Source: an uncultured Gammaproteobacteria bacterium
GTDB lineage: Bacteria > Patescibacteriota > Microgenomatia > Levybacterales > GWA1-39-11
Reading direction: 5' to 3'
NCBI GenBank assembly: GCA_964531275.1
Contig: CAZHDZ010000004.1
Location: forward strand, 73,887 to 137,886
Length of the DNA stretch: 64,000 bases
In this document: positions 9,625-54,002 of the stretch, in pieces
Position numbering within the stretch: position 1 is the stretch's first letter
Layout of the letters: every line of letters starts with the position of its first letter
Notes under the pieces: model-generated
What the model was told of the DNA's origin: nothing
The model's input: the letters and a program-made list of their open reading frames with translations, nothing else
The model's database searches: none
Translations under genes and position numbers: made by a program

Positions 9625-11481
9625 TTAACTCACTTTTACATAAAGACGTCTTACCCCACGGGCAACGCCTTCTTCCTTAAGTATATCAAATGACTGGATA
9701 AGATCTGTATGCTCAACATGAGGACCTCCACAGAACTCTATGGAATAAGCTTTCTCTTTTTCTGAGTGTGGGTTTGGCCCGCCAATAAAGTATATTTTTA
9801 CGTCTTTTGCATATTTGTCATCAAATAACCCGATTGCTCCTAGGTCTCGAGCCTTCTGAAGAGGCATAATCTCAAAATGCACAGAAAGATCTTCTGCTAT
9901 TTTCTTATCTACAATTTCCTTAACTTTTTGCAATTCTTCTGGGGTTACTTTTTTATCATATGTAAAATCGAATCGCACTCTTTCTGACGTGATATTACTT
10001 CCCGTCTGATGCACTGAGTCCCCCAGAATGTCACGAAGGGCCTGATGCATGAGATGTGTCGCTGTATGCCCTTTAACAGTTAATTCTGAATGGTCTGCAA
10101 GACCACCAGCAAATTTTTGCGATGAACCAGCTCGAGAATTTTCCTGATGCTTTTTAATAAGCTCTGAAAGCTCTTTATCATCAAATGTATACCCAAGGCT
10201 TTTAAGCTGAGTTGGACCAAGACCATAGCTTGCCATAGATTTAAATGCTAAATCTGCAGAAATTAATGTAACTCCCATTAATTCATCTCCAACAGTTACT
10301 TCTTCGGTAATTCTTGATAACTCTTTTTCTATAAGCTTTTTTCCGCCAGCGAGTGCTTTTTGATATGTCTGCTCCTCTTCAAGAATTATATTTTTAATCT
10401 CGATGAACTGGTCTTTAAGAATCGGATCAGTAGGAGCATATTGCTCTACAATTTTTTCCAAGACCGACGAAATGTCTTTTCCAGAAAGTAGGTAGAAATT
10501 ATCTAGTCCTCTTCTTATTAAGCGGCGCAGAATATACCCTTGTTCTTTGTTTGAAGGTTTTACTCCATTCGATGCAATAAAAATGGAAGCAGTCATATGA
10601 TCCAAAACAATTCTCATTTCACGAAATTCCTTCGCATAATCTTTACCTGTAATCTCTGCTATTTTTTCAATAATTGGATAGAAAAGACTTGATCTAAATA
10701 CATCTTGCTTGTTCTCGGTAGCAGCAACGAGTCGCTCAAGACCTCCACCAAAATCTACATTTTGTTTTGGTAGATCTTCAAATCCATTTTCGGTCTTGAT
10801 GTATTGCATAAATACCGAATTGCCAATTTCCAAATATCTTCCGCAATCACAATTTACATGACAATGTAAATTCTTAAATGGGCTATTCTCATGAAGTCCT
10901 AATTCCTCCCCAAAGTCATAAAACATTTCGCTATCAGGTCCACCTGGCTCTCCATTTGGCATCTTATCTGGAGTTCCTGCACGAGACCACCAATTCTTCT
11001 CAACACCATATTCAAAGATTTTATCTTTTGGGTCTAGGCCTTTTTTTGTAAAAAGTTCTTTCCAAATTTCAATACTCTCGGTGTCTTTTTCAACTGTATC
11101 CGATCCCTCAAAAACAGTGACAAATAATTTCTTTGGATCAAGATTTAATTCTTCTGTTAAGAATTCAAAAAACCAAGGAAGTTGTTCTTTCTTAAAATAA
11201 TCTCCAAGAGACCAATTTCCAAGCATTCTAAAAAATGTTGTATGTCTGTTATCTCCTATTTCATCGATATCTTGAGCGCGAAAACTATTTTGAGCATTTA
11301 CTAATCTTTTTCCAGAAGGATGCTCTTCGCCGAGAAGAAATGGTACAAGCGGTTGCATTCCTGATGATGTAAAAAGAGTTGTCGGGTCATTCTGTGGCAC
11401 GAGTGAAGAATTCTCAATGCGTGCGTGTCCACGCTTTTCAAAAAATGAAATGTATTTATTAAGAATTTCTGAAGCTGTCAT
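9625..11481 (-). CDS. alaS: Alanine--tRNA ligase (short form, 618 aa).
   Basis: Class II AlaRS motifs FTSSGMQPLVPF and RHTTFFRMLGNWSLGDYFK. Editing-domain HTATHLMHQALRDILG. Confidence 0.9.
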   Translation of the reverse strand: MTASEILNKYISFFEKRGHARIENSSLVPQNDPTTLFTSSGMQPLVPFLLGEEHPSGKRLVNAQNSFRAQDIDEIGDNRHTTFFRMLGNWSLGDYFKKEQLPWFFEFLTEELNLDPKKLFVTVFEGSDTVEKDTESIEIWKELFTKKGLDPKDKIFEYGVEKNWWSRAGTPDKMPNGEPGGPDSEMFYDFGEELGLHENSPFKNLHCHVNCDCGRYLEIGNSVFMQYIKTENGFEDLPKQNVDFGGGLERLVAATENKQDVFRSSLFYPIIEKIAEITGKDYAKEFREMRIVLDHMTASIFIASNGVKPSNKEQGYILRRLIRRGLDNFYLLSGKDISSVLEKIVEQYAPTDPILKDQFIEIKNIILEEEQTYQKALAGGKKLIEKELSRITEEVTVGDELMGVTLISADLAFKSMASYGLGPTQLKSLGYTFDDKELSELIKKHQENSRAGSSQKFAGGLADHSELTVKGHTATHLMHQALRDILGDSVHQTGSNITSERVRFDFTYDKKVTPEELQKVKEIVDKKIAEDLSVHFEIMPLQKARDLGAIGLFDDKYAKDVKIYFIGGPNPHSEKEKAYSIEFCGGPHVEHTDLIQSFDILKEEGVARGVRRLYVKVS

Positions 11482-19427: not shown

Positions 19428-21626
19428 CTACTGATTATTATTGTCTTCCGTCGCGGGGCCACTGAGGAATTCGTCAGCATTTCTTACTAGAACATCTCTT
19501 GGTTTTGATCCATCTGCAGGTCCAACGACACCAGCTTCTTCTAATTGCTCGAGCAAACGGGCTGCTCTATTAAATCCGACTTGCAAGCGTCGCTGAATAA
19601 GCGATGCGCTTGCTCTATCATGTTGAGAAATCATACGCACCGTCTGCTCAAAAAGCTCGTCTCTTCCTTCATCGCCACCTACCGTAGTTATTCCACCACG
19701 ACCCTTTATATTAACTGCTTGCTGAATAACCTCTTGAGTGTATTCTACAGGAATACCCTTTGACTTAATAAAGTTAGTAAGACGTTTTACATCTTGATCC
19801 GAAACAAAAGTACCCTGAATTCTTGTAGGTCTGGCTTGATCTGGAGGGACATATAACATATCTCCTTTTCCAAGAAGTTTTTCAGCTCCTGGGCCATCAA
19901 TAATAACCTTTGAGTCAATTCCTGAAGATACATTAAATGCTATGCGACATGGGATATTTGCCTTAATAAGACCGGTTATAACATCCACCGATGGACGCTG
20001 TGTTGCAAGAACAAGATGTATTCCGGTAGCACGAGCCATCTGTGCAAGACGGGCAATACTATCTTCAACCTCGACAGGAGCAAGCGCCATAAGATCTGCT
20101 AATTCGTCCATAACGATGATGATGTAAGGTATTGCCTGAAAACCAGCAAGCTCATTGTAACTATCAAGATTTTTAACTCCGGCTTCTGCAAATTTTGTAT
20201 ATCGCTTATCCATCTCTTTAAGTGCCCATTTAAGTGCAGATACTGATTGGTCTGCCTCAACAATCACTGGGGAGAGTAAATGAGGTATATCATTGTATCC
20301 TGTTAACTCGACTCTTTTAGGATCTATCATGATGAATTTAACTTCGGAAGGAGAGGCCCTAAAAAGAATTGATGAAATAAATGCATTTACCATAACGGAT
20401 TTACCAGATCCAGTAGTACCTGCGATAAGTACATGGGGCATCTTTGAAATATCTGCAACGACCGGATCTCCTGACACATTAAGCCCTAACGGTACGGCAA
20501 GTTTTGATTTTGTCTCTTGCATCTTTTTTGTTTCAAGCATCGCCCGAAGACCAACGAATTCCAGGGACGTATTTGGAATTTCGATTCCCACAAGACTTCT
20601 TCCGGGGATAGGAGCTTCAATTCTAATTTGTCCACCAGGAGCCTCTGTTGCAAGTGCAAGGTCATTTGATAAGGTAGTTATCTTTGTAAGCTTTGTTCCT
20701 TCCGGAATACGAATAGCATACTGGGTAACGGATGGACCGACATTAATCTCGGCAACCTGGGCTTTGACTCCAAAACTTTGAAGAGTTCTTTCAATTGTCC
20801 CCGCAGTCCTCTTAACATCCCCTGTGTCTCTTTTCTTTTCTTTATTTTCTGTCAGAAGTGAGAATGGAGGGTATTCCCACATTCCCATTTCCAACGGCTT
20901 ATTAAGAATCATCTCTTCAGGAAGAACTCCCTTCTTTGGCATTGGCGCAGGTGCCATTGTTGGGGCAGCTGACTTTGCTGGAGCGGCGGCTGCCTCAAGC
21001 TTTGCCTCAGATATCTTAACGTCACTACTATCATCAATTCCCTTAATTTTCATTGGAGTCATATCAGTTGCAAATTTATCCTTGGTCTTAAGCAACGGCA
21101 CCGTTGCTTTTCCAACTCCACTTCCAGCACCCTTTATTGAATTGAAAAGATACATTCCTATCTCTGTAAAAGATAGGTTCATGCACACAACAAACCCTAT
21201 AAAAGCACCCAATGCAAAGAGGAGCACGCTTAAGATCGGTCCGATAATGCTACTAAGATAATAAAAAAGATCATGTCCAACCATCCCGCTTTGAAATAAT
21301 CCCAATATAGAAATCGTAAAAACAATAAATCCAATAGAGATATTTGGACGAGAAAGACTATTTTTCATCTGCAATATGAATAAGGCGACCAAGACACAAA
21401 CAATTGGAATCAAAAATGAGAAAAACCCAAAAAAGTTAATTAAGAAGTCATTAAGTTGCATCAAGGCTGATCCGCTTCGAGTGTAAGAGACAACGCAGGC
21501 AATCGCTGCAAAGACAAGGCTAATCGCAGATACTGTATAAACTGTTCCCTTTTTGAGTTTTAGGCCACCACCACCACTTCTTCTTTTGTATGAACCCCTC
21601 TTCTTTACTTTTTTCTTTTTGGCCAT
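19428..21626 (-). CDS. ftsK: DNA translocase FtsK/SpoIIIE.
   Basis: N-terminal TM helices, Walker A GTTGSGKS, Walker B IIVMDELADLM, and a C-terminal gamma winged helix (ASASLIQRRLQVGFNRAARLLEQLEEAGVV). Confidence 0.9.
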   Translation of the reverse strand: MAKKKKVKKRGSYKRRSGGGGLKLKKGTVYTVSAISLVFAAIACVVSYTRSGSALMQLNDFLINFFGFFSFLIPIVCVLVALFILQMKNSLSRPNISIGFIVFTISILGLFQSGMVGHDLFYYLSSIIGPILSVLLFALGAFIGFVVCMNLSFTEIGMYLFNSIKGAGSGVGKATVPLLKTKDKFATDMTPMKIKGIDDSSDVKISEAKLEAAAAPAKSAAPTMAPAPMPKKGVLPEEMILNKPLEMGMWEYPPFSLLTENKEKKRDTGDVKRTAGTIERTLQSFGVKAQVAEINVGPSVTQYAIRIPEGTKLTKITTLSNDLALATEAPGGQIRIEAPIPGRSLVGIEIPNTSLEFVGLRAMLETKKMQETKSKLAVPLGLNVSGDPVVADISKMPHVLIAGTTGSGKSVMVNAFISSILFRASPSEVKFIMIDPKRVELTGYNDIPHLLSPVIVEADQSVSALKWALKEMDKRYTKFAEAGVKNLDSYNELAGFQAIPYIIIVMDELADLMALAPVEVEDSIARLAQMARATGIHLVLATQRPSVDVITGLIKANIPCRIAFNVSSGIDSKVIIDGPGAEKLLGKGDMLYVPPDQARPTRIQGTFVSDQDVKRLTNFIKSKGIPVEYTQEVIQQAVNIKGRGGITTVGGDEGRDELFEQTVRMISQHDRASASLIQRRLQVGFNRAARLLEQLEEAGVVGPADGSKPRDVLVRNADEFLSGPATEDNNNQ

Positions 21627-21724: not shown

Positions 21725-23428
21725 TTAGATGTTCCAGGCCTTCTCTTTATATTCTTGAATGCAGCGATTTGTATTGAAGAATGCACCTAGCGTTATTGCA
21801 TGTTTCATCCTGTGCATCCAATCGTTTTTATTATTGTAATAAAGAGGAATAATTTCATTCTGTAGCTTATTGTACATATCATCAATATCCTGCTTGTCAT
21901 CATTTATAGGGGCAAGACTCGTATCATTTGGCCCGATTGAAAACCCAGACTCGCTATCCATCTCGTAACCCTCAATCCACCATCCATCAAGAACAGAAAA
22001 ATTCAGCACACCATTTAATGCTGCTTTCATACCACTAGTGCCTGATGCCTCAAGAGGTCTTCTTGGAGTGTTGAGCCATACATCCGACCCTCTAACCAAC
22101 TGACGGGCAAGTAGTGGGGAATAATTCTCTAGATATACAACTTTTATACGTCCTCTCAATTTTTTAGAAATATCAATAATCTCCTTTACAAAATTTTTGG
22201 CCATCTCGTCTCCGGGGGCTGCTTTACCACATTGAATGATCTGCAATTTACCATCACCAATGGTAAGTAGCCTCTCAAGATCAGAATACAGTAATAGTGG
22301 TCGCTTATAAGGAACGAGGCGTCTGGCAAGAGATATAGTCAGAATATCTATATCGAATTGTTCTGGCTCTGGTGGATTTTCCCTTTCCTCCTCACTATTA
22401 ACTGAGGTTAGATGATTGTTAACATGATCCAAAAGCCTGCTTTTCTCCGCCTGATGTGCACGCCATAATTCTTCATCAGGAATCTTATCAACTGCCTCTT
22501 TAAATACGCCGGGATTATGTATCCATTCTGGCAGGAATTTATCATATAAATTTGCGAGCTCTGTACCTATCCACGTCCTGTGATGCACGCCATTTGTAAT
22601 TGCCTTTATGTGGAACTGAGGGAACATTGCAGCCGTAACCTGTCCGTGTTTCTGGCTAACACCAAAAGCAACATTGCTCATACTCATACCAAGAATTGTT
22701 GTATGCAATTCTTTTTCGCTCGCAATTTTTTTTATATGCCAAGGCAAATTGTCTCCTGCTATCTTGTGTGCGTAATCGTAATCAAATTTGTCATGCCCTT
22801 CAGGAATTGGCGTATGCGTAGTAAAGACACACAATTTTTTTACAGCCTCGTCGTCAAATCCCTTTTCAGAAAGCAACCCAAGTGGAACAAAAGAAGCATG
22901 GCCTTCATTCATATGAAATGTTTTGACGTCATGATATCCAAGACTTCTTAGCATCTTAACGCCACCGATTCCCAGGAGCACTTCTTGATCTAGTCTTACT
23001 CCACCCCCATACAGATTTTGCGTAAGACTTTTGGCATATTCAGAGTTATCTATAAAATCTGTATCTAGAAGATAGACGGGAACCACAAATTCATCAATTC
23101 CTGTTATGTCATACCTCCAGCAACCAACAATAACTTTTTGTCCTTGGATAGTAACTTCAACTCTATTTGGTAACTTTGTGAGTTGATCATTCTTATGCCA
23201 GACCAAAGACTCGTAATCCTGAGATCCTTCTGTAGTAATAACCTGACGATAGGTGCTGTCATTGTAAACCAAAGACATCCCAACTACAGGCACTTTCATG
23301 TCTGCACAAGAGCGCATAAGGTCTCCAGCCAATACCCCAAGTCCGCCGGCATAGGTTGGAATATCTGATTCCAACATAAATTCCATTGAGAAGTAAGCAC
23401 AATCGAGGGTGGGACGTTTTGTTTCCAT
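21725..23428 (-). CDS. Alpha-glucan (glycogen/maltodextrin) phosphorylase, GT35 short type.
   Basis: PLP-site motif EASGTSGMKAALNG. N-terminal YFSMEFMLESDIPTYAGGLGVLAGD. Confidence 0.85.
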   Translation of the reverse strand: METKRPTLDCAYFSMEFMLESDIPTYAGGLGVLAGDLMRSCADMKVPVVGMSLVYNDSTYRQVITTEGSQDYESLVWHKNDQLTKLPNRVEVTIQGQKVIVGCWRYDITGIDEFVVPVYLLDTDFIDNSEYAKSLTQNLYGGGVRLDQEVLLGIGGVKMLRSLGYHDVKTFHMNEGHASFVPLGLLSEKGFDDEAVKKLCVFTTHTPIPEGHDKFDYDYAHKIAGDNLPWHIKKIASEKELHTTILGMSMSNVAFGVSQKHGQVTAAMFPQFHIKAITNGVHHRTWIGTELANLYDKFLPEWIHNPGVFKEAVDKIPDEELWRAHQAEKSRLLDHVNNHLTSVNSEEERENPPEPEQFDIDILTISLARRLVPYKRPLLLYSDLERLLTIGDGKLQIIQCGKAAPGDEMAKNFVKEIIDISKKLRGRIKVVYLENYSPLLARQLVRGSDVWLNTPRRPLEASGTSGMKAALNGVLNFSVLDGWWIEGYEMDSESGFSIGPNDTSLAPINDDKQDIDDMYNKLQNEIIPLYYNNKNDWMHRMKHAITLGAFFNTNRCIQEYKEKAWNI

Positions 23429-30041: not shown

Positions 30042-30739
30042 GCAAATTTATAGAAACATTTGGAAACCAACCTGTACTACTTCCAGTAATTCACGTAGTA
30101 AGTGAAAGACAAGCTCTGGAAAATGCACGAATTCTTTCGCAAGAAAATGTTAGAGGAAGCTTTCTTATAAGTATGGATGGGATGCCCAACAGCAAACTTT
30201 TAGAAATACACAGCAGAGTAAAGAGTGAATACCCAAAACTATGGCTGGGCATAAATTTGCTTACCACCCCAATAAAAAGAGTTTTTGAAAAAATTGATGA
30301 CCGAGTCGATGGAGTATGGACAGATAATGCAATGATTCACGAAGGATCACAAGGACAAGAAGACGCTCAGGAAATTGCTGAAGCACGCATCAAAAGCGGC
30401 TGGGAGGGATTATACTTTGGAGGAGTTGCTTTCAAGGGCCAGAGGAAAGTAGACAATCCTGCAAGAGCTGCAATGATAGCGGGTGAATATATGGATGTTG
30501 TGACGACTAGTGGTGAAAGAACCGGGAAACCCCCAGAAGTTACTAAAATATCCGATATGAAAAACGCTATTGGAAATACACCTTTAGGAATAGCGAGCGG
30601 AATCTCGATTGACAACATAAGTGACTATATTCCTATAGCTGATTGCTTCCTGGTAGCTTCAAGTATGCTTCAACCTGGGACTGATAATTTTGATAGAGGT
30701 AAAGTTAGGGATCTACAAGGACTCTTTACACTTCGATAA
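30038..30739 (+). CDS. BtpA/SgcQ-like TIM-barrel protein.
   Basis: N-terminal LPVIHV segment and overall size and fold resemble the BtpA family. Overlaps the upstream PfkB kinase stop. Confidence 0.35.
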   Translation: MSKFIETFGNQPVLLPVIHVVSERQALENARILSQENVRGSFLISMDGMPNSKLLEIHSRVKSEYPKLWLGINLLTTPIKRVFEKIDDRVDGVWTDNAMIHEGSQGQEDAQEIAEARIKSGWEGLYFGGVAFKGQRKVDNPARAAMIAGEYMDVVTTSGERTGKPPEVTKISDMKNAIGNTPLGIASGISIDNISDYIPIADCFLVASSMLQPGTDNFDRGKVRDLQGLFTLR

Positions 30740-32420
30740 CAATGGGGATGACAAGAGGCTCTCTTTTCATTCTATAAAGCAGATTCTCGCTCGTTCTTTG
30801 GATTATCTTTCTATATACTCCCATATTATTACTTTTTGGAGATTTTTGACTGAGCTCAAGAAGCAGTTCTTCATTGAGCTGCTTTACAAATCCATCTTTT
30901 TCAGGGAATACAAATCCTCGAGCTATAATATCGGGCTTTGACACAACTTTTCCAGTCTCTCCCTCAATTTCAACAACCACTATCATAATTCCCTCCTCAG
31001 ATATTTTCTGGCGATCCACAAGAATAAATTTCTCCATTTCCTCACCGGTTATTTGATCGACATATACAGTGGCCAATGGAATTTTTGCACCATAGCGAAA
31101 AGCTGTTTTTGTAAAAATGACTTCCTGCCCATACTCTGGAAGTACAACGTCTTGGTCACGCATTCCAAGATCCTTCATAAGCCCTCTAAATGCGACCATG
31201 TGTCTATAATTTCCTCCGATCGGAAAAGCAAATCTAGGATAGGTAAGAGTTGCAAGAAGCTTTATGTCATTTTGAGAACCGTGTCCTGATACGTGAAATT
31301 CATCTGACATATCTGAATGGATAACACGTGCTCCTTTTTTAGCAATAGTGTCAATTAACTTATAAATATTTACTTCATTTCCCGGGATTGGATCTGCCGA
31401 GAAAATAACAGTATCGTTTTTATCTATTCGCAACGCTTTATCATTGTCATTAGCAACTCTAACGAGTGCTGATTCTTCTTGAGCTTGGCTTCCAGGAATC
31501 AAGATCATAACCTTTGAAGGGTCCATAGACATCACCTGCTGGGGTTTTACTTCCATATTTGCTGGAAGCTTTACGTATCCAAGTTGTCGACCGATATCTC
31601 GAGCTTTTATAAAAGATCTTCCCATAAAACATACTTTTCTATTAAATTTAAGTGCTCCTTCGATTGCCTGATTCATACGAGAAATATTTGAAGAGTAGGT
31701 ACTTACGAATACTCTGCCTTTTGTACGTCTAAATTCTGCTTCAAAGCTATCTGAAATCTTTCTTTCAGACTTTGAGTGACCCTCACGCTCAGCACCGAGA
31801 CAATCAGAAAGCATACAAAGAACTCCTTCTGTCCCAGTTGCAGCGATTCCATGTACATCTGAGGGCTTGCCGTCAGGAGGTGTTAGATCAAATTTATAAT
31901 CACTTCCATGATAAAAATTACCGACTGGTGTTTTTATAAATATATTAGAGGTATCCATTACGCTATGAGTTATATGAAGGAATCTGACCATAAAAGATCC
32001 CAATTTAAAGTCTTTCTTAAATTTAACCTCTACTACCCTTTGACTCAATCCAAAATCCTTTAATTTCTCGTTAGTAAATGCTGTAGTAAGAGGCGTTGCA
32101 TATATAGGAAAATCTGGCAATTGACCTATTACAAACGGTACACCACCAATATGATCTTCATGTCCATGTGTCAGAAGCAATCCAACGATTTTTTTACCTT
32201 GAGTAAGGAGCTTCTTAAGGTGGGTTATGTCGGGAATTAAAAAGTCTACTCCTGGGGTGCTTGCATCAGGAAAACCCATTCCACAATCAACAATAAGAAT
32301 GTCATTACCATAAATATATAGGTACATATTCTTGGTAACTGATCCTATTCCGCCAAGAGGAAGTATCGTTACAGAACTCTGGGGCATTGGGGGTGGCGTT
32401 ACTATAGTACTACTATCCAT
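30726..32420 (-). CDS. rnj: Ribonuclease J (metallo-beta-lactamase / beta-CASP).
   Basis: Motif HGHEDHIGG with the preceding VDCGMGFP. 564 aa, typical RNase J length. Confidence 0.9.
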   Translation of the reverse strand: MDSSTIVTPPPMPQSSVTILPLGGIGSVTKNMYLYIYGNDILIVDCGMGFPDASTPGVDFLIPDITHLKKLLTQGKKIVGLLLTHGHEDHIGGVPFVIGQLPDFPIYATPLTTAFTNEKLKDFGLSQRVVEVKFKKDFKLGSFMVRFLHITHSVMDTSNIFIKTPVGNFYHGSDYKFDLTPPDGKPSDVHGIAATGTEGVLCMLSDCLGAEREGHSKSERKISDSFEAEFRRTKGRVFVSTYSSNISRMNQAIEGALKFNRKVCFMGRSFIKARDIGRQLGYVKLPANMEVKPQQVMSMDPSKVMILIPGSQAQEESALVRVANDNDKALRIDKNDTVIFSADPIPGNEVNIYKLIDTIAKKGARVIHSDMSDEFHVSGHGSQNDIKLLATLTYPRFAFPIGGNYRHMVAFRGLMKDLGMRDQDVVLPEYGQEVIFTKTAFRYGAKIPLATVYVDQITGEEMEKFILVDRQKISEEGIMIVVVEIEGETGKVVSKPDIIARGFVFPEKDGFVKQLNEELLLELSQKSPKSNNMGVYRKIIQRTSENLLYRMKREPLVIPIVIEV

Positions 32421-33601: not shown

Positions 33602-34411
33602 ATGGTACTTCCCATCATTACCTCTGCCCCTCATGACGCAGACAGCTTCGGTCCTTTCTCTTCTCGTGTGAAATTAAGTCCATGGCAACTAGGTGAGTTT
33701 TCAGACAAATACACTGCTGTTACTGCATATAATCACAACGCTATAGGAAATTTAAAATCCATAGTATCAAGAGGACTTGGAAGTCTTAATCAGCCACGAG
33801 ATCTATCACTTTTTAAATTAAAAGATTTTCATGGAAATACAATTTGGAAAGATGAGGCAGAACTTTCCGAGAAAGAAAAAAAGGAATGCTTTGAAAAATA
33901 TCATGATCGCTATCACAATGATATTGAACGACTCATTAAAAGATCCAAAACTCTCGGCTTTGACAAAGTCATTTTATGGGATCATCATGATACCGGAGAT
34001 TTTGACGAGAAGACGCAAAAAAGAGATAGAAAATTGCCTGGTGAAGAAAGAACCATGCCAAAATTCATTCTTTCAAATTTTGGAATGCAGCATACAGGAG
34101 AACTGAATCCAGAGAATGAATTCACATCATGCCCACCAGAATTTATTCAGCAAGTTCAAGACTATATGGCATATGAATTTGATTTACCCCACTCTGAGGT
34201 TGAGATAAATACCTCTTACAAAGGTGGTCACATAATACAAACCTATGGAAATCCTAAAAATGACTTTGGGAATACAGTTGTTGGAATTCAGATCGAATAC
34301 AATAGAGGATTTATCATGGATCAGCGCACAAGATTACCGTATAAAGATAAATTAAAAGAATTCAATGAAAAATTTAATCGGGTAATGGAAAAGGCTTGTG
34401 GACTAATCTAG
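33602..34411 (+). CDS. Hypothetical protein, possibly N-formylglutamate amidohydrolase-like hydrolase.
   Basis: N-terminal ITSAPHDAD and WDHHDTGD metal-site-like motifs. Weak family resemblance only. Confidence 0.3.
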   Translation: MVLPIITSAPHDADSFGPFSSRVKLSPWQLGEFSDKYTAVTAYNHNAIGNLKSIVSRGLGSLNQPRDLSLFKLKDFHGNTIWKDEAELSEKEKKECFEKYHDRYHNDIERLIKRSKTLGFDKVILWDHHDTGDFDEKTQKRDRKLPGEERTMPKFILSNFGMQHTGELNPENEFTSCPPEFIQQVQDYMAYEFDLPHSEVEINTSYKGGHIIQTYGNPKNDFGNTVVGIQIEYNRGFIMDQRTRLPYKDKLKEFNEKFNRVMEKACGLI

Positions 34412-40211: not shown

Positions 40212-41234
40212 CTAAGCTTTTTTTTCGGTAACAGGTGAGATCACTTCATCTGTTCCTTCAACTTCAATACTATAACCAGTTAGCTTGCTTGCCAATCGAA
40301 CATTCTGACCTTCTTTTCCGATAATTAACGGTAATTCCTCTTTTGGAGCTTTTACAACAACTGATTTTTCTTTTTCATTGACTTCAATTGTAAGATTTTT
40401 TGCTGGAGAAAGAGCGTTAGTAATATAACGAACATGATCATTGCTCCACTGGATAACATCAATCTTCTCAAGGCCATCAACAGCATCAATAACGGCTTGA
40501 ATTCTGACTCCTTTTTGACCTACACAGCTACCTACTGGGTCAATGCCTGACTGATCCGAAGCAACCGCAATTTTTGCTCTAGAGCCTGGCTCGCGCATAA
40601 TTTCTTTAATAACAACACTCCCTGCTGCAACTTCAGGAACTTCTCGACGGAGCAATCCTTCTAGCAAACCGTTGTGAGTTCTGGAAACTATAATCTCTCG
40701 ACCTCTCTTCTCATCTTCTGCAATCTCTACAATATATACGGCAAGCTTCTTATTGAGATAGTAATTTTCATTCTGAATTCTGTGAGATTGTGGAATAATT
40801 GCCTCAGCTTTACCGATATCAACTACGATTGCGCTTCCCGCAAAACGGAGAATCATACCATTTACTACAGTTCCGATTCTTTTTGTGTACTCAGCCATGA
40901 TCGCATCTTTTTCGCGCTCACGAATTTTTTGCAATAACACTTGCTTTGCAGTCTGAGTTGCAATTCTTCCAAAGCCTGGAGGCGTAACGTCTTTTCCTTC
41001 GTAGGTAATCTTTGTTTCTCCAGTATTTGAATTTATTTCTGCTGAATATTTAGCTGCTTCCTTTTCCGCTTCTTCTTCATCGAGTGCTTCAAGAACAGGA
41101 ATAACGTGATCTTTTTTATAAGCAGCAAGAATAGCAGTTTTAATGCTTTCCATGATTATCTCAGGATCTACTCCTCGTTCTGTTGCTATTTGATTTAGTG
41201 CGAGAGAAAACTCGCTTCTTTGTATTGCTGGCAT
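40212..41234 (-). CDS. nusA: Transcription termination/antitermination factor NusA.
   Basis: NusA N-domain, S1 domain (GTVVNGMILRFAGSAIVVDIG) and two KH domains. Start set at MPAIQRSE; the ORF could extend to 41273. Confidence 0.8.
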   Translation of the reverse strand: MPAIQRSEFSLALNQIATERGVDPEIIMESIKTAILAAYKKDHVIPVLEALDEEEAEKEAAKYSAEINSNTGETKITYEGKDVTPPGFGRIATQTAKQVLLQKIREREKDAIMAEYTKRIGTVVNGMILRFAGSAIVVDIGKAEAIIPQSHRIQNENYYLNKKLAVYIVEIAEDEKRGREIIVSRTHNGLLEGLLRREVPEVAAGSVVIKEIMREPGSRAKIAVASDQSGIDPVGSCVGQKGVRIQAVIDAVDGLEKIDVIQWSNDHVRYITNALSPAKNLTIEVNEKEKSVVVKAPKEELPLIIGKEGQNVRLASKLTGYSIEVEGTDEVISPVTEKKA

Positions 41235-41389
41235 AATTACGAAAAATGGTGGCAAGCTTTTGACTACCACCACGACTTCAACATTGTACTAGAAGCTGGT
41301 CATCAAGTCAAGGAAGTGAGGCTAAATTTAGCTATTGTGTAAAAATTTTAGTGATACACTTATTTCTATATTTATATAGATTGTTAGAC

Positions 41390-41420
41390 TTGACAATGCT
41401 CCTACCAAGGATCATATAAT
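41390..41420 (+). promoter_or_regulatory. Sigma70-like promoter (TTGACA, 19 bp spacer, TATAAT) directing transcription into the hairpin-repeat array.
   Basis: TTGACA at 41390..41395 and TATAAT at 41415..41420. Confidence 0.4.
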
Positions 41421-41463
41421 GAACAAGTTCTGTTTTGCCCCTGAACTTATTTTATTTGTTCCC

Positions 41464-41678
41464 ATTTGACCTGCCTACGTTTTTTGTGATGTGGTAGGCA
41501 AAAATTACATTTGACCTGCCTACGGAAAGCGCAAGCGATACGAGGCAAGTCCCAGACAATTTGACCTGCCTACGACGAGTTCCACGAGACGAGGCAGAAA
41601 AATAAATTAGACCTGCCTACGACGAGTTCCACGAGACGAGGCAGAAAAATAAATTAGACCTGCCTATGATACTGTTTA
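41464..41678 (+). repeat. Five direct repeats of ATT(T/A)GACCTGCCTACG (16 nt) with periods 55/50/47/47 bp. Each unit has a (G)AGGCA ... TGCCT(AC) inverted pair. The last two 47-bp units are identical.
   Basis: Repeats at 41464, 41519, 41569, 41616 and 41663. Stem GTAGGCA/TGCCTAC in unit 1, GAGGCA/TGCCTAC in later units. Confidence 0.75.
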
Positions 41679-41703
41679 ACTGCTCAGAATACTAAACAAC
41701 AGC

Positions 41704-41732
41704 ATTTATTTGCTGTTTTTTTGTGGTTAAGC
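41704..41732 (+). terminator. Rho-independent terminator/attenuator-like hairpin (AACAGCA-TTTATT-TGCTGTT + T7) between the repeat array and the downstream gene.
   Basis: 7-bp stem, 6-nt loop, followed by TTTTTTT. Confidence 0.45.
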
Positions 41733-41786
41733 AATTTTATATGCAACTTGGCAGGGGTATCTTTTTTTGAAAGGGGGTGAACATAT

Positions 41787-42380
41787 ATGAATATCAAACA
41801 AAAATTAACATCAGCAGCAGTTGCTGGAGCAATGATGGCGAGTGTAGTAGCCCCGTCAGCATTTGCTGCAAATACTGTTACTGTGAAAGGCGGAGGAGCT
41901 TTTAGCTCTTCAAAGGCTGTAGTTGTAAATAAAAAAACAACAACAGTTGGCCAATCAAACTCAACAGTCGTGCAAACAAATATCGGTCAGAAAGCCTCAA
42001 CAGGTGGCAATTCTTCCTCATTCAACACAGGAGGAACTAGCTCAATCAAAACCGGTAGCGCATCTAATACTGCAGGAGTACACGTTACTGGAGGAACAAA
42101 TACCTACACAACCGATTGCGGATGTGAAGGAAATGGTTCAACTACCATAACTGTAACCGGTGGAGGAGCTTTTAGCTCTTCAAAGGCAATAGTCAAAAAT
42201 ATTTCTACAACTACCGTTAGCCAGTCTAACTCAACAGTAGTAGGAACTTCAATTTGGCAAAGCTCTTCAACTGGACATAATAGCTCAAGCTTCAATACTA
42301 ATGGTGGAGGCACTATCGAAACAGAAGGAGCTACTAATACAGCAGCAGTTGTAGTTGGTGGATCTACAAACACTAACTAG
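41787..42380 (+). CDS. Secreted Asn/Thr/Gly/Ser-rich repeat protein (197 aa) with a signal peptide and a CGCEG motif. Member of the surface-protein family in this cluster.
   Basis: Strong RBS AAGGGGGTGA. Signal peptide AVAGAMMASVVAPSAFA. Two ~85-aa repeats (VTVKGGGAFSSSKAVV...STVVQTNIGQ...TGGNSSSFNTGG). Confidence 0.6.
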   Translation: MNIKQKLTSAAVAGAMMASVVAPSAFAANTVTVKGGGAFSSSKAVVVNKKTTTVGQSNSTVVQTNIGQKASTGGNSSSFNTGGTSSIKTGSASNTAGVHVTGGTNTYTTDCGCEGNGSTTITVTGGGAFSSSKAIVKNISTTTVSQSNSTVVGTSIWQSSSTGHNSSSFNTNGGGTIETEGATNTAAVVVGGSTNTN

Positions 42381-42405: not shown

Positions 42406-42439
42406 AAACCCTCCCCTGATCAAGGAGGGTTTGTTTTTT
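42406..42439 (+). terminator. Rho-independent terminator (AAACCCTCC-loop-GGAGGGTTT + T-run).
   Basis: Perfect 9-bp stem followed by GTTTTTT. Lies 25 bp after the stop of 41787..42380. Confidence 0.7.
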
Positions 42440-42496
42440 AGTAAAAGGTCTAAGATTGCCTAGCCACAATACAAAAAATTAGTGGGAGGAATAATA

Positions 42497-46838: not shown

Positions 46839-48095
46839 TTAGTTAGACATTCCGAAGATTGCCCAAAGTGCTGCAAAGTTGAAAGAAAAGTCAACTTCTG
46901 GCATTTCTGGCATATCGAATGGAAGAGATCCAACTGAGTTAACGTTACCTGAGTTTGAAACTGAAGTTGAAGATTTTGCATTTCCAGTTACAATTGCTGG
47001 GTCAGTTTCGTGATCCACTGATCCTGTGTTGTATCCTGCTTCATTATCTCCTGTTTCTGCGTCATCAACATCAACATTGTTATCTAAGTTAGCTGCATTA
47101 TTTTGTGCAACTGCCTTAGCGTTAGCTAGGTTAAGTCCGATATAATTATCGTCCTTATCCCACCATTTGTGATCTGTGTCAGCGCCGTTTCCTGCAATTT
47201 TTGCAGTTACGTCGAATTCACATCCACAATCTACATCAGCGAAATTAAAGTTAACAGAATTGTCAACTCCAACTTCAACATCTGAGTTACCAGTAAGGAT
47301 AACTACGTCGCCTCCTGTATTAAAGTTAGCATCGTTGTCTCCTGTTTCGGCGTCAACATCAACTTCGTTGTCGATATCTGCATTGTTGTTTTGAGCAACA
47401 GATGTAGCATTTGTCATTGAAGCTAATATTTCATTGTCGCTTCCAGCGCCGTTTCCGACGATTGTGAAGCTAGCCTGTGGTGTTGGTGTAGCGCTCATGC
47501 CTCCACCTACTTGTGCTGAATTAACATTAGCAAGTGTAGAAACATCAACGTTTACCTTTGCATTACCAGTTTTGATAACAACATCGCCACCAGTATTTAG
47601 GCCTGCTTTGTTGTCTCCGGTTTCTGCATCTACATCTACGTTATTGTCAACGTTTGCTGTGTTATTCTGAGCAACGGTTGTAGCATTAACATTTGTTAGT
47701 CCTACTCCATTGTTAGACTTAGCTCCGTTTCCTGAGATTTTAACTTCAGTGTTTGAAGCACCACAACAATCAACATTTGCAATGTTCTTATTAAGATCAT
47801 TAGCAACTGTTGCGTTTACTTTTGCATCGCCAGTTTGAATACCTACGTTTCCGCCAGTATTGTAATTAGCTTTGTTATCTCCAGTATCTGCGTTGGTTTT
47901 TACTGTATTTGTAACATTAGCTGTGTTGTTCTGAGAAACGGTTGTAGTGTTGGTATTTTGAACAGCAACATTGCTGTCAGCTCCAGCTCCGTTTCCAGAG
48001 ATTTCGATAGTAGTAGCGAATGCTGGAGTTGCGATATTTGCAACCATAACTCCTGCTGTTACTACTGAGAAAATTTGTTTTTTGAAATTTGTCAT
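46839..48095 (-). CDS. Secreted Asn/Thr/Gly-rich repeat surface protein (418 aa) with VDCGCE / VDCCG motifs.
   Basis: Strong RBS GAGGAGGTG. Signal peptide VVTAGVMVANIATPAFA. About four ~75-aa repeats (ISGNGAGSDN...VAQNN.A.VDN.VDVDAETGDN.A..NTGGDVVI.TGNA.V). Confidence 0.65.
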   Translation of the reverse strand: MTNFKKQIFSVVTAGVMVANIATPAFATTIEISGNGAGADSNVAVQNTNTTTVSQNNTANVTNTVKTNADTGDNKANYNTGGNVGIQTGDAKVNATVANDLNKNIANVDCCGASNTEVKISGNGAKSNNGVGLTNVNATTVAQNNTANVDNNVDVDAETGDNKAGLNTGGDVVIKTGNAKVNVDVSTLANVNSAQVGGGMSATPTPQASFTIVGNGAGSDNEILASMTNATSVAQNNNADIDNEVDVDAETGDNDANFNTGGDVVILTGNSDVEVGVDNSVNFNFADVDCGCEFDVTAKIAGNGADTDHKWWDKDDNYIGLNLANAKAVAQNNAANLDNNVDVDDAETGDNEAGYNTGSVDHETDPAIVTGNAKSSTSVSNSGNVNSVGSLPFDMPEMPEVDFSFNFAALWAIFGMSN

Positions 48096-48218: not shown

Positions 48219-48276
48219 AACAAAAAAACGGAGACTTCCGCACACAAAAACAATTGTGTGAAGAAGCCTCCGTTTG
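48219..48276 (-). terminator. Compound hairpin (AAACGGAG...CACACAA-AAAC-TTGTGTG...CTCCGTTT) followed on the minus strand by a T-run. Probable terminator of the small upstream gene.
   Basis: Nested 8-bp and 7-bp stems. CAAAAAAA on the plus strand gives TTTTTTTG immediately after the hairpin on the minus strand. Confidence 0.5.
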
Positions 48277-48345
48277 CGGTCAGCTCTCTAATTTATTAAC
48301 TTATACTCTATCTAAATTGGACTGTCAAGATCTAATTAGTTACTG

Positions 48346-52496: not shown

Positions 52497-54002
52497 ATGG
52501 CAACTTCCAAAAGAAGGTTGCCGAGCTCAAGAAGATCTGCCCCGGTCTCCCGCTTTGAAAGGTTTGGCGATATCAAACAAACAGTTGATTCAAGAATTTC
52601 TGATTTGAAAATCAAAAAACGCTACAACAATAGCGTTGCTTTTGCGCAGAAAAAACCTTTTACAAGCTTTTTCATTGTCCTTGGAGCCTTACTTCTTATT
52701 ATCATTCTCGGAAGCACTATCTTTAGCGTTAAAAGTCCAAAGATCGAAGGAAGAACCATGCCAAAGAACGTAAATGTTTATAGACTTGGAGCCTCTCCAA
52801 GAATTTCTGTACAGGGTGAAGTTAAAAAAGGTGGCGTTGTTAAGATAGTCGCCTCAACTCCCGGAATTGTTAATTCAATTAATGTATATGAAGGGGACTC
52901 TATTGAAAAAGGAACAGTTATCCTCAATCTTGCATCTAATTATGAAGGTGCAAATGCTGCGACTCTTCAACGCCAGCTTGCAGGATCATCTTATCAAAAC
53001 ACTAAAGATACGTATGATACACAAAAAGACCTTATTCAAAAACAACGAGATCTTGCAAATCTACAAAGCACAAACGCTGAAGGCATAAGGAAAATAACCC
53101 AAACATCGATTGAAGAAACAGAGCAACTTATTAATCTCAACTCAGAACTTATAAATCCTATTAAATCTCAGATTGCATCTCTTCAAAGTAGCAACGGCAG
53201 CCCTACGCAAATTGCAGAACTTCAGTCATTGCAGTCACAACTACAAGGAGGCATTAATCAGCTACAGTCAGCGCTTCGCGCAAGCAGGCTTCAAGTTGAT
53301 CCGAGCAAAGCCCCAGTTGCACTTGAAAAAATTGGACATGAAATTGCCCTAAAACAAATAGCTCTACAAGAAAGAGCATTGAAATTTGGACTTGAAGCAG
53401 CAGGAATACAATTCAGACTTGCCCAAGTTCAGGAGTCAACTATGTATCCTTCGTCTCCATTCAATGCAGTTGTACAAAAGATTAATGTCAAAGTTGGGGA
53501 CTCAGTTAATCCTGGTGCAACACTTGCAACACTAGCAGGGGACAGCGGAGACGTTGTAGTTGATGCAAAGGTTCCGAAAGAAATAGCTGAAAAAGTTTCG
53601 AAAATTGAAAAGGCTGTTATTGATATAAATGGAAAGAAAATTGAACTAATGCCTTCCTATGTATCAACAGAGGCAACTGATGGTCAATTATATTCTGTTC
53701 TCTTTACCTTGCCTACTGAATACAAAAAGCTCTTTACTGATAGCTCATTCGTAAGTGTCTCACTACCCATTGGAGAAACCATAGGATCGACAATACCGTT
53801 TGTGCCGGTTGATAGCGTTTTTCAGACACAGGATGAGGCATTTGTTTTCGTAATAGAAGGTGGGAAAGCACGATCAAGAAAAGTAAAACTCGGACCAGTT
53901 ACCGGAAGTTATGTCACCATCGAACAAGGATTAACGTCTCGTGATCAGGTAATTCTTAATAGAACTGTTATTGATGGAGATTCTGTAAAAGTTCAGAACT
54001 AA
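52497..54002 (+). CDS. Efflux RND periplasmic adaptor subunit (HlyD-like) with an N-terminal cytoplasmic extension.
   Basis: Single TM and a long coiled-coil. C-terminal beta-barrel domains. Directly precedes the RND pump gene. Confidence 0.55.
   Translation: MATSKRRLPSSRRSAPVSRFERFGDIKQTVDSRISDLKIKKRYNNSVAFAQKKPFTSFFIVLGALLLIIILGSTIFSVKSPKIEGRTMPKNVNVYRLGASPRISVQGEVKKGGVVKIVASTPGIVNSINVYEGDSIEKGTVILNLASNYEGANAATLQRQLAGSSYQNTKDTYDTQKDLIQKQRDLANLQSTNAEGIRKITQTSIEETEQLINLNSELINPIKSQIASLQSSNGSPTQIAELQSLQSQLQGGINQLQSALRASRLQVDPSKAPVALEKIGHEIALKQIALQERALKFGLEAAGIQFRLAQVQESTMYPSSPFNAVVQKINVKVGDSVNPGATLATLAGDSGDVVVDAKVPKEIAEKVSKIEKAVIDINGKKIELMPSYVSTEATDGQLYSVLFTLPTEYKKLFTDSSFVSVSLPIGETIGSTIPFVPVDSVFQTQDEAFVFVIEGGKARSRKVKLGPVTGSYVTIEQGLTSRDQVILNRTVIDGDSVKVQN

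Follow-up and report, generated by a model that had tools for sequence, protein, structure and literature searches.

What is a series of five short direct repeats doing between the promoter and the start codon of a secreted-protein gene in Candidatus Levybacteria, members of the Candidate Phyla Radiation (CPR)? The locus lies within the 64-kb stretch of DNA that was analysed as a whole (the window), part of a Candidatus Levybacteria chromosome whose NusA has homologues bearing the Levybacteria name, and an earlier note on this DNA had seen in it, variously, a structured leader or attenuator, an array of operator sites and a phase-variable repeat tract. Our best explanation, held tentatively, is that this region forms the 5′ leader of an mRNA encoding a secreted repeat protein and acts as a transcription attenuator, in which translation of a mini-ORF would occlude the terminator. 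This mini-ORF, which begins in the last repeat and ends at the terminator, had been overlooked in the earlier note. The elements of the locus are the following, where R is the 16-nt repeated box and 'a' the shorter box that complements its core.

41373..41384, + strand: conserved box TATATAGATTGT, just 5′ of the −35 hexamer, visible as conserved columns in a promoter alignment of nine lineages
41390..41420, + strand: sigma-70-type promoter; TTGACA at 41390-41395, 19-nt spacer, TATAAT at 41415-41420
41425..41448, + strand: 5′ hairpin AAGUUC...GAACUU, from local folds, with box 1 (UUGCCCC, 41435-41441) in its loop
41464..41500, + strand: unit 1, an R→a hairpin; R1 at 41464-41479, 14-nt loop, a1 GTAGGCA at 41494-41500
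41509..41547, + strand: unit 2; R2 at 41509-41524, 16-nt loop, a2 CGAGGCA at 41541-41547
41559..41597, + strand: unit 3; R3 at 41559-41574, 15-nt loop, a3 CGAGGCAG at 41590-41597
41606..41644, + strand: unit 4, a near-perfect 47-nt tandem copy of unit 3; R4 at 41606-41621, 15-nt loop, a4 CGAGGCAG at 41637-41644
41653..41668, + strand: box R5 ATTAGACCTGCCTATG, the putatively ancestral last R and the sole copy ending in ATG (41666-41668)
41666..41695, + strand: mini-ORF MILFNCSEY plus stop (ATG ATA CTG TTT AAC TGC TCA GAA TAC TAA), the stop ending 2 nt before the terminator stem
41698..41722, + strand: intrinsic terminator; stem-loop AACAGCATTTATTTGCTGTT with its stem at 41698-41717, T7 ending at 41722, then a conserved GTG
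41749..41755, + strand: final 'a' box TGGCAGG, complementary to the CCTGCC core of R, after the terminator and about 20 nt 5′ of the Shine-Dalgarno sequence (SD)
41771..41789, + strand: SD AAGGGGGTGA at 41771-41780 and ATG at 41787
41787..42380, + strand: the regulated gene, encoding a 197-aa secreted protein with two Gly/Ser/Thr/Asn-rich repeats and a signal peptide ending AFA-A

The leader opens with a near-consensus TTGACA-N19-TATAAT promoter, present as the earlier note had claimed, whose hexamers and 19-nt spacing are kept in eight of nine related lineages while the spacer sequence is not conserved. It went unlisted by a promoter consensus scanner because that program takes only 16-18-nt spacers. 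Transcription would start near 41427, and the TATATAGATTGT box just 5′ of the −35 may act as an UP-like element or bind a factor. Past the start, every leader contains a YUGCCC box, which in four of nine lineages lies within a hairpin loop, on differing stems; an anti-SD role for box 1 was considered and rejected, the lineages with CCCC boxes having GGAGG SDs. Nor does the array belong to the leader of nusA, because that gene has a promoter of its own (41311..41283) on the opposite, − strand, downstream of which it starts. R itself was also considered as a promoter element (a sigma-70 −35, an ECF-type −35 or a sigma-54 site); by inspection, no lineage offers it a consistent −10 or −12 partner.

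The five direct repeats claimed earlier are real. GACCTGCCTAYG occurs five times in the 64 kb, on the + strand only (41468, 41513, 41563, 41610 and 41657), against 0.20 occurrences expected by chance, and none of 100 shuffles reached five. The full 16-mer ATTWGACCTGCCTAYG starts at 41464, 41509, 41559, 41606 and 41653 (spacing 45/50/47/47), the fifth copy ending in TATG instead of TACG; the first of the positions previously assigned is thus right, and the other four (41519, 41569, 41616 and 41663) are each 10 nt too high. Boxes of the form (G/C)(T/G)AGGCA stand at 41494-41500, 41541-41547, 41590-41597 and 41637-41644, so that an AGGCA box precedes repeats 2-5 as had been stated, and not repeat 1. 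Two identical 47-bp units had also been reported, and 41563-41609 indeed matches 41610-41656 fully; Tandem Repeats Finder delimits 41558-41666 with period 47, 2.3 copies and 98% matches. A search of the 64-kb window for the 16-nt motif, as the earlier note had suggested, returned no copy outside this one locus, and R is equally confined to a single locus in each relative fetched. Among the five units R is identical at 15-16 of its 16 positions, and the loops and linkers have nothing in common. Because R stays identical while the loops have diverged, the extra copies look selected. In this genome R has undergone four duplications, a short copy of 'a' accompanying each, so that the ancestral R is preceded by four R→a hairpins; the latest duplication is the perfect 47-nt tandem copy. 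The extra copies may serve as recognition sites, or as pause or stabiliser hairpins.

The same leader is found at 11 related Levybacteria loci, 5′ of the same secreted-protein gene or its operon, in a constant order: TTGACA-N19-TATAAT, the YUGCCC box, R (UUUGA(A)CCUGCC) in one, two, three or five copies, a terminator with U7, the UGGCAGG 'a' box, a strong SD and the ATG. Across these 11 loci synteny holds for promoter, terminator, boxes and gene alike, and all of them are conserved, which bears out the expected conservation in relatives and supports the earlier suggestion of a structured, transcribed leader (attenuator) of the downstream gene. A single R is present in L036/L034, L041-L050, L052 and L061, two in L051, three in L039 and L033, and five in the window. 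Between lineages that have changed in everything else, the cores of R and 'a' do not vary, and the number of 'a' boxes equals that of R in 10 of the 11 lineages with boxes, the exception being L033 with three R-like and two 'a' boxes. Copy number varies between species (1, 2, 3, 5) and not between the two assemblies of this strain, whose 5-copy arrays are identical; in a related species all 10 of 10 contigs carry one copy. The phase variation proposed earlier is not supported by this pattern. Two short contigs break at exactly 41669-41671. Exact-match scans for the two-repeat pattern in collections of genome contigs and metagenome contigs gave only unrelated repeats (coding repeats, other tandem arrays and a Methylobacterium intergenic motif), for which reason the exact box is regarded as lineage-restricted, and viral contigs contained no match to the R-AUGA...U6GUG module.

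How do the boxes pair? The earlier note had each AGGCA pairing with the next repeat, leaving ATTTGACC in the loop. Instead, R pairs better with the AGGCA that follows it, by 1.6 to 6.5 kcal/mol in every unit (−13.6 for R→a vs −12.0 kcal/mol for the alternative in unit 1, −15.9 vs −10.0 in unit 2), and as the RNA is transcribed this register would be the earlier one to form. Single-copy relatives, in which the partner GGCAGG lies after the terminator, have no other register available. The pairing is lengthened by lineage-specific inner pairs, and one unit keeps a pair as G·U. In most whole-leader minimum-energy folds, and in all folds of the module, the last R pairs with 'a' beyond the terminator, the R:a duplex having a predicted energy of −10.6 to −14.6 kcal/mol and the R-to-'a' module z-scores of −2.4 to −7.6 in 10 lineages. 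Folding further predicts, for eight of nine lineages, that the last R together with its AUG is largely single-stranded in the nascent RNA and paired in the full leader. Through ACCU-G-CC and the AUUUGA flank, R can in every lineage also pair with GGRGGUGAAAU, the SD and start region, with energies of −5.7 to −12.0 kcal/mol. In this the leader recalls SD/anti-SD sequestration leaders; R:a is always stronger, however, and since R has this better partner in cis throughout, the real SD is predicted to be free. The covariation that had been proposed as a check on the boxes is absent, because both R and 'a' are invariant; in L061 (ACUGCC) one R:a pair is lost and uncompensated. A chimera test of the middle of the rod yielded −14.9 vs −12.2 kcal/mol, only a modest lineage-specific gain. 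RNAalifold on a MAFFT alignment returned R:SD pairs only, because the GGCAGG box and the terminator arms were misaligned. Whole-leader minimum-energy folds of the 5-copy array are uninformative, being dominated by promiscuous repeat-repeat pairing. No alternative antiterminator helix competing for the terminator arms appeared in the folds.

It is the mini-ORF that connects the last R to the terminator. Taking as the AUG-bearing R the last R (in L033, the last full CCUGCC copy), an AUG (AUGA) follows it directly in nine of nine lineages, and follows none of the eight upstream copies. The ensuing frames are 8, 9 or 10 codons long, differing by threes over R-to-terminator distances of 26 to 32 nt, and in nine lineages their stops fall between −6 and +6 nt relative to the terminator's 5′ foot. 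In spite of a diverged interior the frame remains open, the product of the per-lineage shuffle probabilities being 0.002, which overstates the significance because the lineages share ancestry. The two most divergent leaders have ORFs of 17 and 22 codons that run into or through the terminator. An A-rich tract commonly precedes terminators, and part of this geometry could be a by-product because the stop often falls in that tract. The encoded peptides are not conserved and lack any amino-acid run, and close variants differ non-synonymously. The lack of an SD before the mini-ORF is no obstacle, because 36 of 45 genes in the window have none, the other nine being SD-led.

The stem-loop and T7 that had been noticed downstream of the array are present, at 41698-41722 rather than 41704..41732. 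In an alignment of 10 modules the T-run and the following GTG are invariant, and the sequences of the terminator stems vary by lineage. Beyond the terminator, TGGCAGG is unique in the window and recurs in 10 of 11 lineages, and the strong RBS and the ATG at 41787 described before are borne out, the SD being AAGGGGGTGA. Terminator and ATG are 64 nt apart with no promoter-like site between them, and in the shortest leaders, where terminator and SD are separated by 35-55 nt, no promoter was found in that interval either. A second promoter was rejected there: a weak TATATG at 41739-41744 stands alone, without a −35, and is better explained, on folding grounds, as a predicted pairing partner of the UAUGA that follows R. 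The gene so reached belongs to a family seen only in Levybacteria and ends in its own terminator at about 42408-42440. Its 197-aa product, which has no match in Pfam or NCBIfam and is probably among the most highly expressed secreted proteins of the Levybacteria cell, is modelled by AlphaFold as all-beta at low confidence (pLDDT 51), too poor a model for a fold search. Around it lie a sortase gene and genes for proteins with LPXTG motifs or signal peptides, and genes for RNase J and PNPase are also within the window. The long leader of a second surface-protein gene (46839-48095, − strand) likewise holds an intrinsic terminator, together with a conserved motif of another kind, which is why leader terminators look like a device in general use among the surface-protein genes here.

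From the architecture, its conservation, the R:a complementarity and the mini-ORF geometry, we infer translation of the mini-ORF and an effect of it on termination. Transcription would start at the conserved promoter, and RNA polymerase must pass the terminator at 41698-41722 to reach the gene. The ancestral module, single in most relatives, would consist of R, an AUG at once, a mini-ORF of 8-10 codons, the terminator and 'a'. In the nascent RNA the last R and its AUG would be unpaired, and a ribosome that reached the mini-ORF stop would cover the 5′ arm of the terminator, allowing the polymerase to read through; with no ribosome on the mini-ORF, the terminator hairpin would form and a short leader RNA would be released. 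After read-through, 'a' and R would pair, and the entire R-to-'a' segment would become a single rod with the terminator at its tip. Such a rod would close off further initiation on the mini-ORF, would hold the anti-SD-like R off the real SD and would probably stabilise the mRNA. The mini-ORF-only mechanism leaves unexplained why the four extra units keep R identical at all 16 nucleotides, even in the AUUUGA flank, which is unpaired, an identity that fits a sequence-specific reader of R better than the mini-ORF alone.

Among known systems, the closest parallels are leader-peptide attenuators such as those of E. coli pyrBI/pyrE and B. subtilis bmrB-bmrCD and the antibiotic-responsive leaders found by Term-seq. 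With them the Levybacteria leader shares a promoter, a short leader ORF ending at or in the terminator and a gene without a separate promoter: a terminator lies between promoter and gene, with no promoter between, in 11 lineages, and a short leader ORF is placed to affect that terminator in nine, two more having longer, overlapping ORFs. It differs in having no SD before the mini-ORF, no regulatory codon run and no conserved peptide, and in the R/'a' pair that brackets mini-ORF and terminator and belongs to a module amplified 1-5 times. It is not of the trp/his type, having neither a mutually exclusive antiterminator helix nor regulatory codons. Premature terminators have been surveyed in general (PMC2965389). 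The leader looks like an undescribed but conventional attenuator. Rfam 15 gave no match at gathering threshold in the whole window, and a permissive scan of 41200-41900 only chance-level hits (E-values 0.34-4, scores far below the gathering thresholds). Resemblances of the leader to a tRNA-Gly anticodon or T-box, and to 16S helix 45 (a shared GAACCUGC), were judged coincidental. CsrB/RsmZ-type sponges, which come from independent sRNA genes, present a GGA motif in the loops of many hairpins: here the loops are unrelated, the conserved box lies in the stem and the transcript runs into the gene. Pneumococcal BOX elements are modular intergenic repeats with ~45-nt modules in variable number, and the present array resembles them in its 45-50-nt hairpin module, variable copy number and position in a 5′ untranslated region. 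Unlike them, the module is not dispersed, being found at one locus per region examined and vertically inherited at the orthologous position.

The identity of R across units and lineages could instead reflect attenuation governed by a factor, a possibility that we rate as real if on the whole unlikely. R would be recognised, either in the RNA or, in the manner of ops, in the non-template DNA strand, by a trans-acting protein that decides passage of the terminator; this could be an antiterminator, of NusG-paralogue type or another, or an RNA-binding protein that promotes termination, like TRAP or PyrR, and more copies of R would mean more chances of loading. The RfaH, LoaP and Bacteroides UpxY regulons are cases of leader-dependent control of genes for surface or secreted products, and the present leader shares with them its length, a short conserved element 5′ of an intrinsic terminator and an extracellular product. 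The near-identity of R in units whose loops and linkers share nothing, the invariance of the R and 'a' cores among otherwise changed lineages and the analogous terminator-bearing leader of the second surface-protein gene are all congruent with a factor. Yet the 64-kb window encodes no NusG/KOW paralogue, ANTAR, PRD or TRAP-like protein, although such a regulator could be encoded outside it, R is unlike the ops consensus GGCGGTAG, its core is buried in a hairpin stem in the extra units, and its confinement to one locus in the window and in each fetched relative would leave the factor a single target. The invariance of R is, moreover, also explicable by its cis partners ('a', the SD region and box 1), and the RfaH/ops, LoaP and UpxY leaders differ from this one, in which the mini-ORF runs up to the terminator and a partner box in cis comes after it. 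For LoaP, a leader hairpin has been described (PMC12691694). Alternatively, the leader might be mainly a translational or stability element, which we consider unlikely. R would then be anti-SD-like and 'a' an SD-like decoy, the rod and hairpins keeping R off the SD and protecting the 5′ end of a very abundant mRNA, possibly with an RNase III processing site, and the terminator would be a constitutive, leaky damper. The R:SD pairing that is possible in every lineage and always weaker than R:a, the GAGG, AGGA or AGGAG within the 'a' boxes, the matching 'a' and R numbers in 10 of 11 lineages, rod-like folds with z-scores down to −7.6 and the nearby RNase J and PNPase genes all agree with this. 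It leaves unexplained, however, the invariant U7 run and the restriction of the AUG to the last R with its stop at the terminator; by our own estimate the complementarity of the R flank to the post-SD region is just marginally above chance, and the helices, short and interrupted, would be poor RNase III substrates.

That the promoter-to-terminator transcript (~300 nt here, ~110-220 nt in relatives) is itself the functional product, a stand-alone sRNA whose one to five anti-SD-like CCUGCC boxes act in trans or as a protein sponge, strikes us as decidedly unlikely. Its proposed targets would be the few SD-bearing surface-protein mRNAs, with GGCAGG or GGAGGUGAAAU. The promoter and terminator are strong and conserved, SD-led genes form a small, special class (9/45), and the repeated C-rich boxes are reminiscent of RsaE/RoxS-type sRNAs. 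R is indeed C-rich and close to the 16S anti-SD (ACCUCC with a G inserted), as 'a' is to the SD (GGAGG with a C inserted), and Rsa RNAs carry a conserved C-rich motif (PMC2790875). In those systems, though, the box resides in an independent sRNA gene and not in a leader, and here the gene downstream lacks its own promoter and depends on read-through, the 'a' partner lies in cis just after the terminator in 10 of 11 lineages, no further TGGCAGG-SD site exists in the window and stems tie up the boxes of the extra units. An array of DNA operator sites for roadblock repression, or a guide-RNA array of CRISPR or TIGR type, is extremely unlikely, even though direct repeats do follow a promoter and the layout is superficially TIGR-like. 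TIGR units are 36 nt long, with two alternating repeats of 8-12 nt and constant spacers of 9 nt (at most 12 nt), usually in 5-15 units, and the arrays occur in CPR bacteria and are followed by a rho-independent terminator (PMC12045711). Here, too, two short boxes alternate with two variable segments in a CPR host. A final R precedes a terminator, with a 30-nt mini-ORF between them, and that layout recurs in relatives that have no array. The boxes, however, measure 16 and 7-8 nt, the segments 14-16 and 8-11 nt and the four complete units 45, 50, 47 and 47 nt. Two of these units are identical, the array is coupled to an SD and a gene that follow it, and the orthologous loci hold a single R and no complete unit. 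CRISPR repeats measure about 23-47 nt and alternate with unique spacers of similar size; here the conserved box is only 16 nt long, and the 29-34 nt between copies contain a second conserved box. A Pfam scan of every ORF of 120 aa or more in the 64-kb window revealed no Cas family, nor any match to PF01798 (Nop) or a related family, a result that a very divergent Nop domain could escape; Nop/Tas, RT and integrase genes were likewise missing among the window ORFs, the neighbours left without annotation are signal-peptide or LPXTG proteins, and the supposed spacers, unequal in length, matched nothing else in the window. With no cas genes there and a single box in the orthologues, the earlier dismissal of CRISPR stands. 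The operator array that had been entertained as well does not fit the irregular spacing (45/50/47/47 bp), which is not helically phased, nor the mere 6-nt core inverted between R and 'a', one pair of which survives in one relative as G·U, pointing to RNA because such pairing works only in RNA.

Translation-coupled attenuation through the mini-ORF is the reading that we tentatively retain. A further idea, which we consider quite unlikely, is that R and 'a' constitute an orthogonalised anti-SD/SD pair (ACCU-G-CC vs GG-C-AGG), an expandable riboregulatory module in which the abundant terminated leader, acting in trans with its one to five anti-SD-like boxes, or boxes read by a factor, would be aimed at SD-bearing surface-protein mRNAs. 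If true, such a module would be a CPR-specific circuit without described counterpart, in a genome whose other genes are mostly leaderless. To our knowledge, almost nothing is known about gene regulation in CPR bacteria, which are not growable alone. For annotators, the locus carries a warning that orthologous loci should be checked before short interspaced repeats in CPR genomes are called CRISPR-like or TIGR-like. Its control box, grown from one to five copies between related species, provides an unusual view of how a modular leader RNA grows, and the leader as a whole offers a conserved, well-delimited cis-regulatory element from the CPR whose design is testable in heterologous or cell-free systems.

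The array between nusA and its divergently transcribed neighbour is a real, conserved and previously undescribed cis-regulatory leader. In the 64-kb window the 12-mer GACCTGCCTAYG occurs five times, always on the + strand and within 41468-41668, against 0.2 copies expected by chance, and none of 100 shuffles reached five. The leader is laid out as follows:

41390 (+): leader promoter, read from sequence: TTGACA, a 19-nt spacer, and TATAAT at 41415
41464, 41509, 41559, 41606, 41653 (+): starts of the 16-mer ATTWGACCTGCCTAYG, the repeated control box R (core CCUGCC), spaced 45, 50, 47 and 47 nt apart
41666-41695: mini-ORF (MILFNCSEY), opened by the AUG at the last R
41698-41717 (+): stem of the leader terminator, followed by T7, likewise read from sequence
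41787-42380 (+): the regulated gene, encoding a 197-aa secreted protein

The strong Shine-Dalgarno (SD) sequence and the ATG at 41787 are as the earlier note had described them; of the five direct repeats it placed the first correctly and each of the other four 10 nt too high. Its AGGCA box before every repeat holds between successive repeats, as (G/C)(T/G)AGGCA(G), with only four boxes for five repeats. The fifth R ends in TATG instead of TACG, and neither a second R array nor another TGGCAGG-SD site occurs elsewhere in the window. The duplication of 47-nt units was also seen correctly: units 3 and 4, each an R with the complementary box 'a' (UGGCAGG or AGGCA) that follows it, form a near-perfect tandem (period 47, 2.3 copies, 98% matches). 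Phase variation by repeat number, proposed on the same occasion, finds no such backing, as a second assembly of the strain, 99.7% identical, carries the five-copy array unchanged. Two short contigs of the same strain, assembled independently from other samples (L017 and L018), stop precisely where the array ends on its 3′ side (41669-41671); either the 47-nt tandem repeat defeated the assembler, or the breaks hint at read-level heterogeneity.

Exact-pattern scans of genome and metagenome collections returned unrelated repeats only. Relatives were reached via contigs encoding homologues of NusA and of the 197-aa protein, and a recognisably homologous leader was found in ten further distinct lineages, providing the conservation to which the earlier note had looked and bearing out its reading of a structured leader or attenuator. 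One such leader occurs per locus, 5′ either of that protein's gene or, in an operon, of a HemolysinCabind-repeat gene ahead of it. These leaders have in common, in order, a conserved upstream box, TTGAC(A/G)-N19-TATAAT, a YUGCCC box that frequently sits in a hairpin loop, R as UUUGA(A)CCUGCC, an intrinsic terminator, 'a' as UGGCAGG, a strong SD GGRGGUGA, and ATG. In the window the upstream box is TATATAGATTGT (41373-41420 with the promoter). The unusual 19-nt spacer is kept in 8 of 9 lineages, its sequence not being conserved, and the adjacent nusA promoter has the usual 17 nt. The terminator U-run and GUG are invariant while the stems differ; L058, the most divergent leader, keeps the terminator but has decayed boxes. 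Copy number of R varies among the compared contigs:

One R: L036/L034, L041-L050, L052, L061, L055, L054
Two R: L051
Three R: L039, L033
Five R: the window

The number of 'a' boxes equals that of R in all box-bearing lineages except L033 (three R-like boxes, two 'a'). Among the chance matches of the pattern scans was a conserved intergenic element of Methylobacterium and related contigs (L002, L004, L005, L009, L011, L012, L013, L020), in which two GCGCAGACCTGCCTACG copies, 44 nt from one another, precede a conserved CCCCATATAATACCCAT by about 50-60 nt; this element has no connection with the Levybacteria leader.

NusA, whose nearest homologues are in Candidatus Levybacteria (CPR, Patescibacteria), is encoded divergently at 40212-41234. 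The array is not part of its leader, because nusA has its own minus-strand promoter (41311..41283). Between that promoter and the nusA ATG at 41234 lies a hairpin resembling a terminator, GTGGTGGTAGTCAAAAGCTTGCCACCAT and then TTTTCG (41246-41273, minus strand), with an analogous GGTGGG...CCCACC hairpin ahead of nusA in relatives; autoregulatory attenuation by NusA is a possible role. The product of 41787-42380 combines a Sec-type signal peptide with two Gly/Ser/Thr/Asn-rich repeats, an internal duplication with a conserved C-x-C between its halves. It matches no Pfam or NCBIfam family, and its AlphaFold model is all-beta and of low confidence (pLDDT 51). The homologues found number only 55; those few that bear a source name are labelled Levybacteria/Levyibacteriota, and the family seems to be confined to Levybacteria. 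A terminator of its own follows the gene, and nearby genes encode a sortase and proteins with signal peptides or LPXTG motifs. A 418-aa neighbour (46839-48095) shares the N-terminal motif TxxISGNGAG...TTTVSQ.N with the 197-aa protein. In several relatives a gene for a PF03118 (RNA-polymerase alpha C-terminal-domain-like) protein lies just downstream of the secreted-protein gene (L055:3378-4007, L052:1964-2635, L034:2636-2827); no homologue is encoded in the window. The 418-aa gene has a long leader with an intrinsic terminator of its own (48222-48330, minus strand):

48328-48323 (-): promoter TTGACA, then N17 and TATAAG
48283-48266 (-): motif CTGACCGCAAACGGAGGC
about 48273-48222 (-): terminator, U7

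It holds no mini-ORF and has no Rfam match; with counterparts of the motif, CTGACCGCCCACGGAAGC / CCGACCGTCAACGGAGGC, in the L054 and L058 leaders, it looks like a second, distinct leader family for surface-protein genes.

The favoured predicted pairing of the array leader joins R to the 'a' that follows it. The earlier note had paired AGGCA with the following repeat, a register that comes out less stable throughout the units of all multi-copy lineages (-7.7 to -14.7 versus -10.8 to -17.8 kcal/mol); the R-to-following-AGGCA register would also be the first to form during transcription. Its stems are lengthened by lineage-specific inner pairs, such as UGAGU/ACUCA in L051. In single-copy leaders the GGCAGG past the terminator is R's only partner. 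For most whole leaders the minimum-energy fold contains the R:a pair, as do 10/10 folds of the R-to-'a' module, each a single rod with R:a at its base and the terminator at its tip (z-scores -2.4 to -7.6). Because the single-copy module folds in this way, the window's extra units look, in these models, like copies of the rod base with the interior omitted. R and 'a' never vary, so covariation between them cannot be counted; L061 (ACUGCC) loses one pair uncompensated, and in a chimera test the lineage-specific contribution of the mid-rod was only modest. In sequence R is similar to the 16S anti-SD and 'a' to an SD. Pairing of R with the real SD/start region is possible in all lineages (-5.7 to -12.0 kcal/mol), but 'a' is always the better partner (-10.6 to -14.6 kcal/mol), and its outcompeting the SD would account for R never being duplicated without 'a'.

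The second element is the mini-ORF. In nine lineages AUGA lies within 0-2 nt after the last R (in L033, the final copy with a complete CCUGCC), whereas none of eight upstream R copies is followed by AUG, the window having ACG there. The frame spans 8, 9 or 10 codons, and its stop codon starts at -6 to +6 nt relative to the base that opens the terminator 5′ arm; the R-terminator distance runs from 26 to 32 nt, yet any difference in mini-ORF length is a multiple of three. The interiors are almost wholly diverged but still open (per-lineage probability 0.40-0.61); the product, 0.002, should be read as the upper limit of significance, since the lineages are related by descent. In the two leaders that have diverged most, ORFs of 17 and 22 codons reach into or through the terminator, and L039 has an upstream in-frame AUG with a proper GGAG SD, provided by the preceding 'a' box. 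Lack of an SD elsewhere is no objection to the mini-ORF, since 36 of the 45 genes in the window also lack one. Many of these SD-less genes (examples are 9625-11481(-), 19428-21626(-), 21725-23428(-), 30726-32420(-), 33602-34411(+) and 52497-54002(+)) carry a TATAAT-, TACAAT- or TATACT-like hexamer 6-12 nt ahead of the ATG, from which initiation in this genome looks to be typically leaderless, near-leaderless or non-SD. Only surface-protein genes have strong GGAGGTGA SDs (41787; 46839-48095; 1124-2569; 2566-3759).

The regulated gene can be transcribed only through the conserved intrinsic terminator, and the mini-ORF is the sole conserved feature placed to influence it. In 8/9 lineages folding predicts that the last R with its AUG is mostly free in nascent RNA and becomes paired once 'a' is made. 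A ribosome at the mini-ORF stop codon would cover the terminator 5′ arm and permit read-through; with no ribosome there, a short leader RNA would be released; and after read-through 'a' would capture R and close the leader. Coupling-type attenuators include pyrBI/pyrE and bmrB-bmrCD, and the proposed read-through step would be of this type. The leader would thereby work as a leader-peptide attenuator does, unlike the trp/his type, whose alternative helices and regulatory codons are both missing. This specific mechanism is put forward tentatively, at slightly less than an even chance. Its main weakness is the window's four extra units, throughout which the whole 16-nt R is identical, unpaired AUUUGA flank included, beside unrelated loops; such identity points to a sequence-specific reader of R, which could be a trans factor or several cis partners of R, and because these are inseparable here, confidence in mini-ORF-ribosome attenuation stays limited.

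Other readings of the array fare less well. Operator sites, which the earlier note had entertained, are unsupported: one L033 unit retains its R:a pair via G.U (GGUAGG) and therefore works only in + strand RNA. CRISPR, for which the array had rightly been called too short and irregular, is likewise unsupported, no cas gene, Nop/Tas protein, reverse transcriptase or integrase being found among all window ORFs of at least 120 aa; Rfam gave no match. The TIGR dual-repeat arrays of CPR bacteria (PMC12045711) come closest in appearance, but the window array fails their defining features, having no Tas protein and 'spacers' that are unequal and partly identical; its 45-50-nt units and its orthologues with a single box fit no better. 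What is unusual about this leader is the growth of its control module, between related species, from one copy to five.
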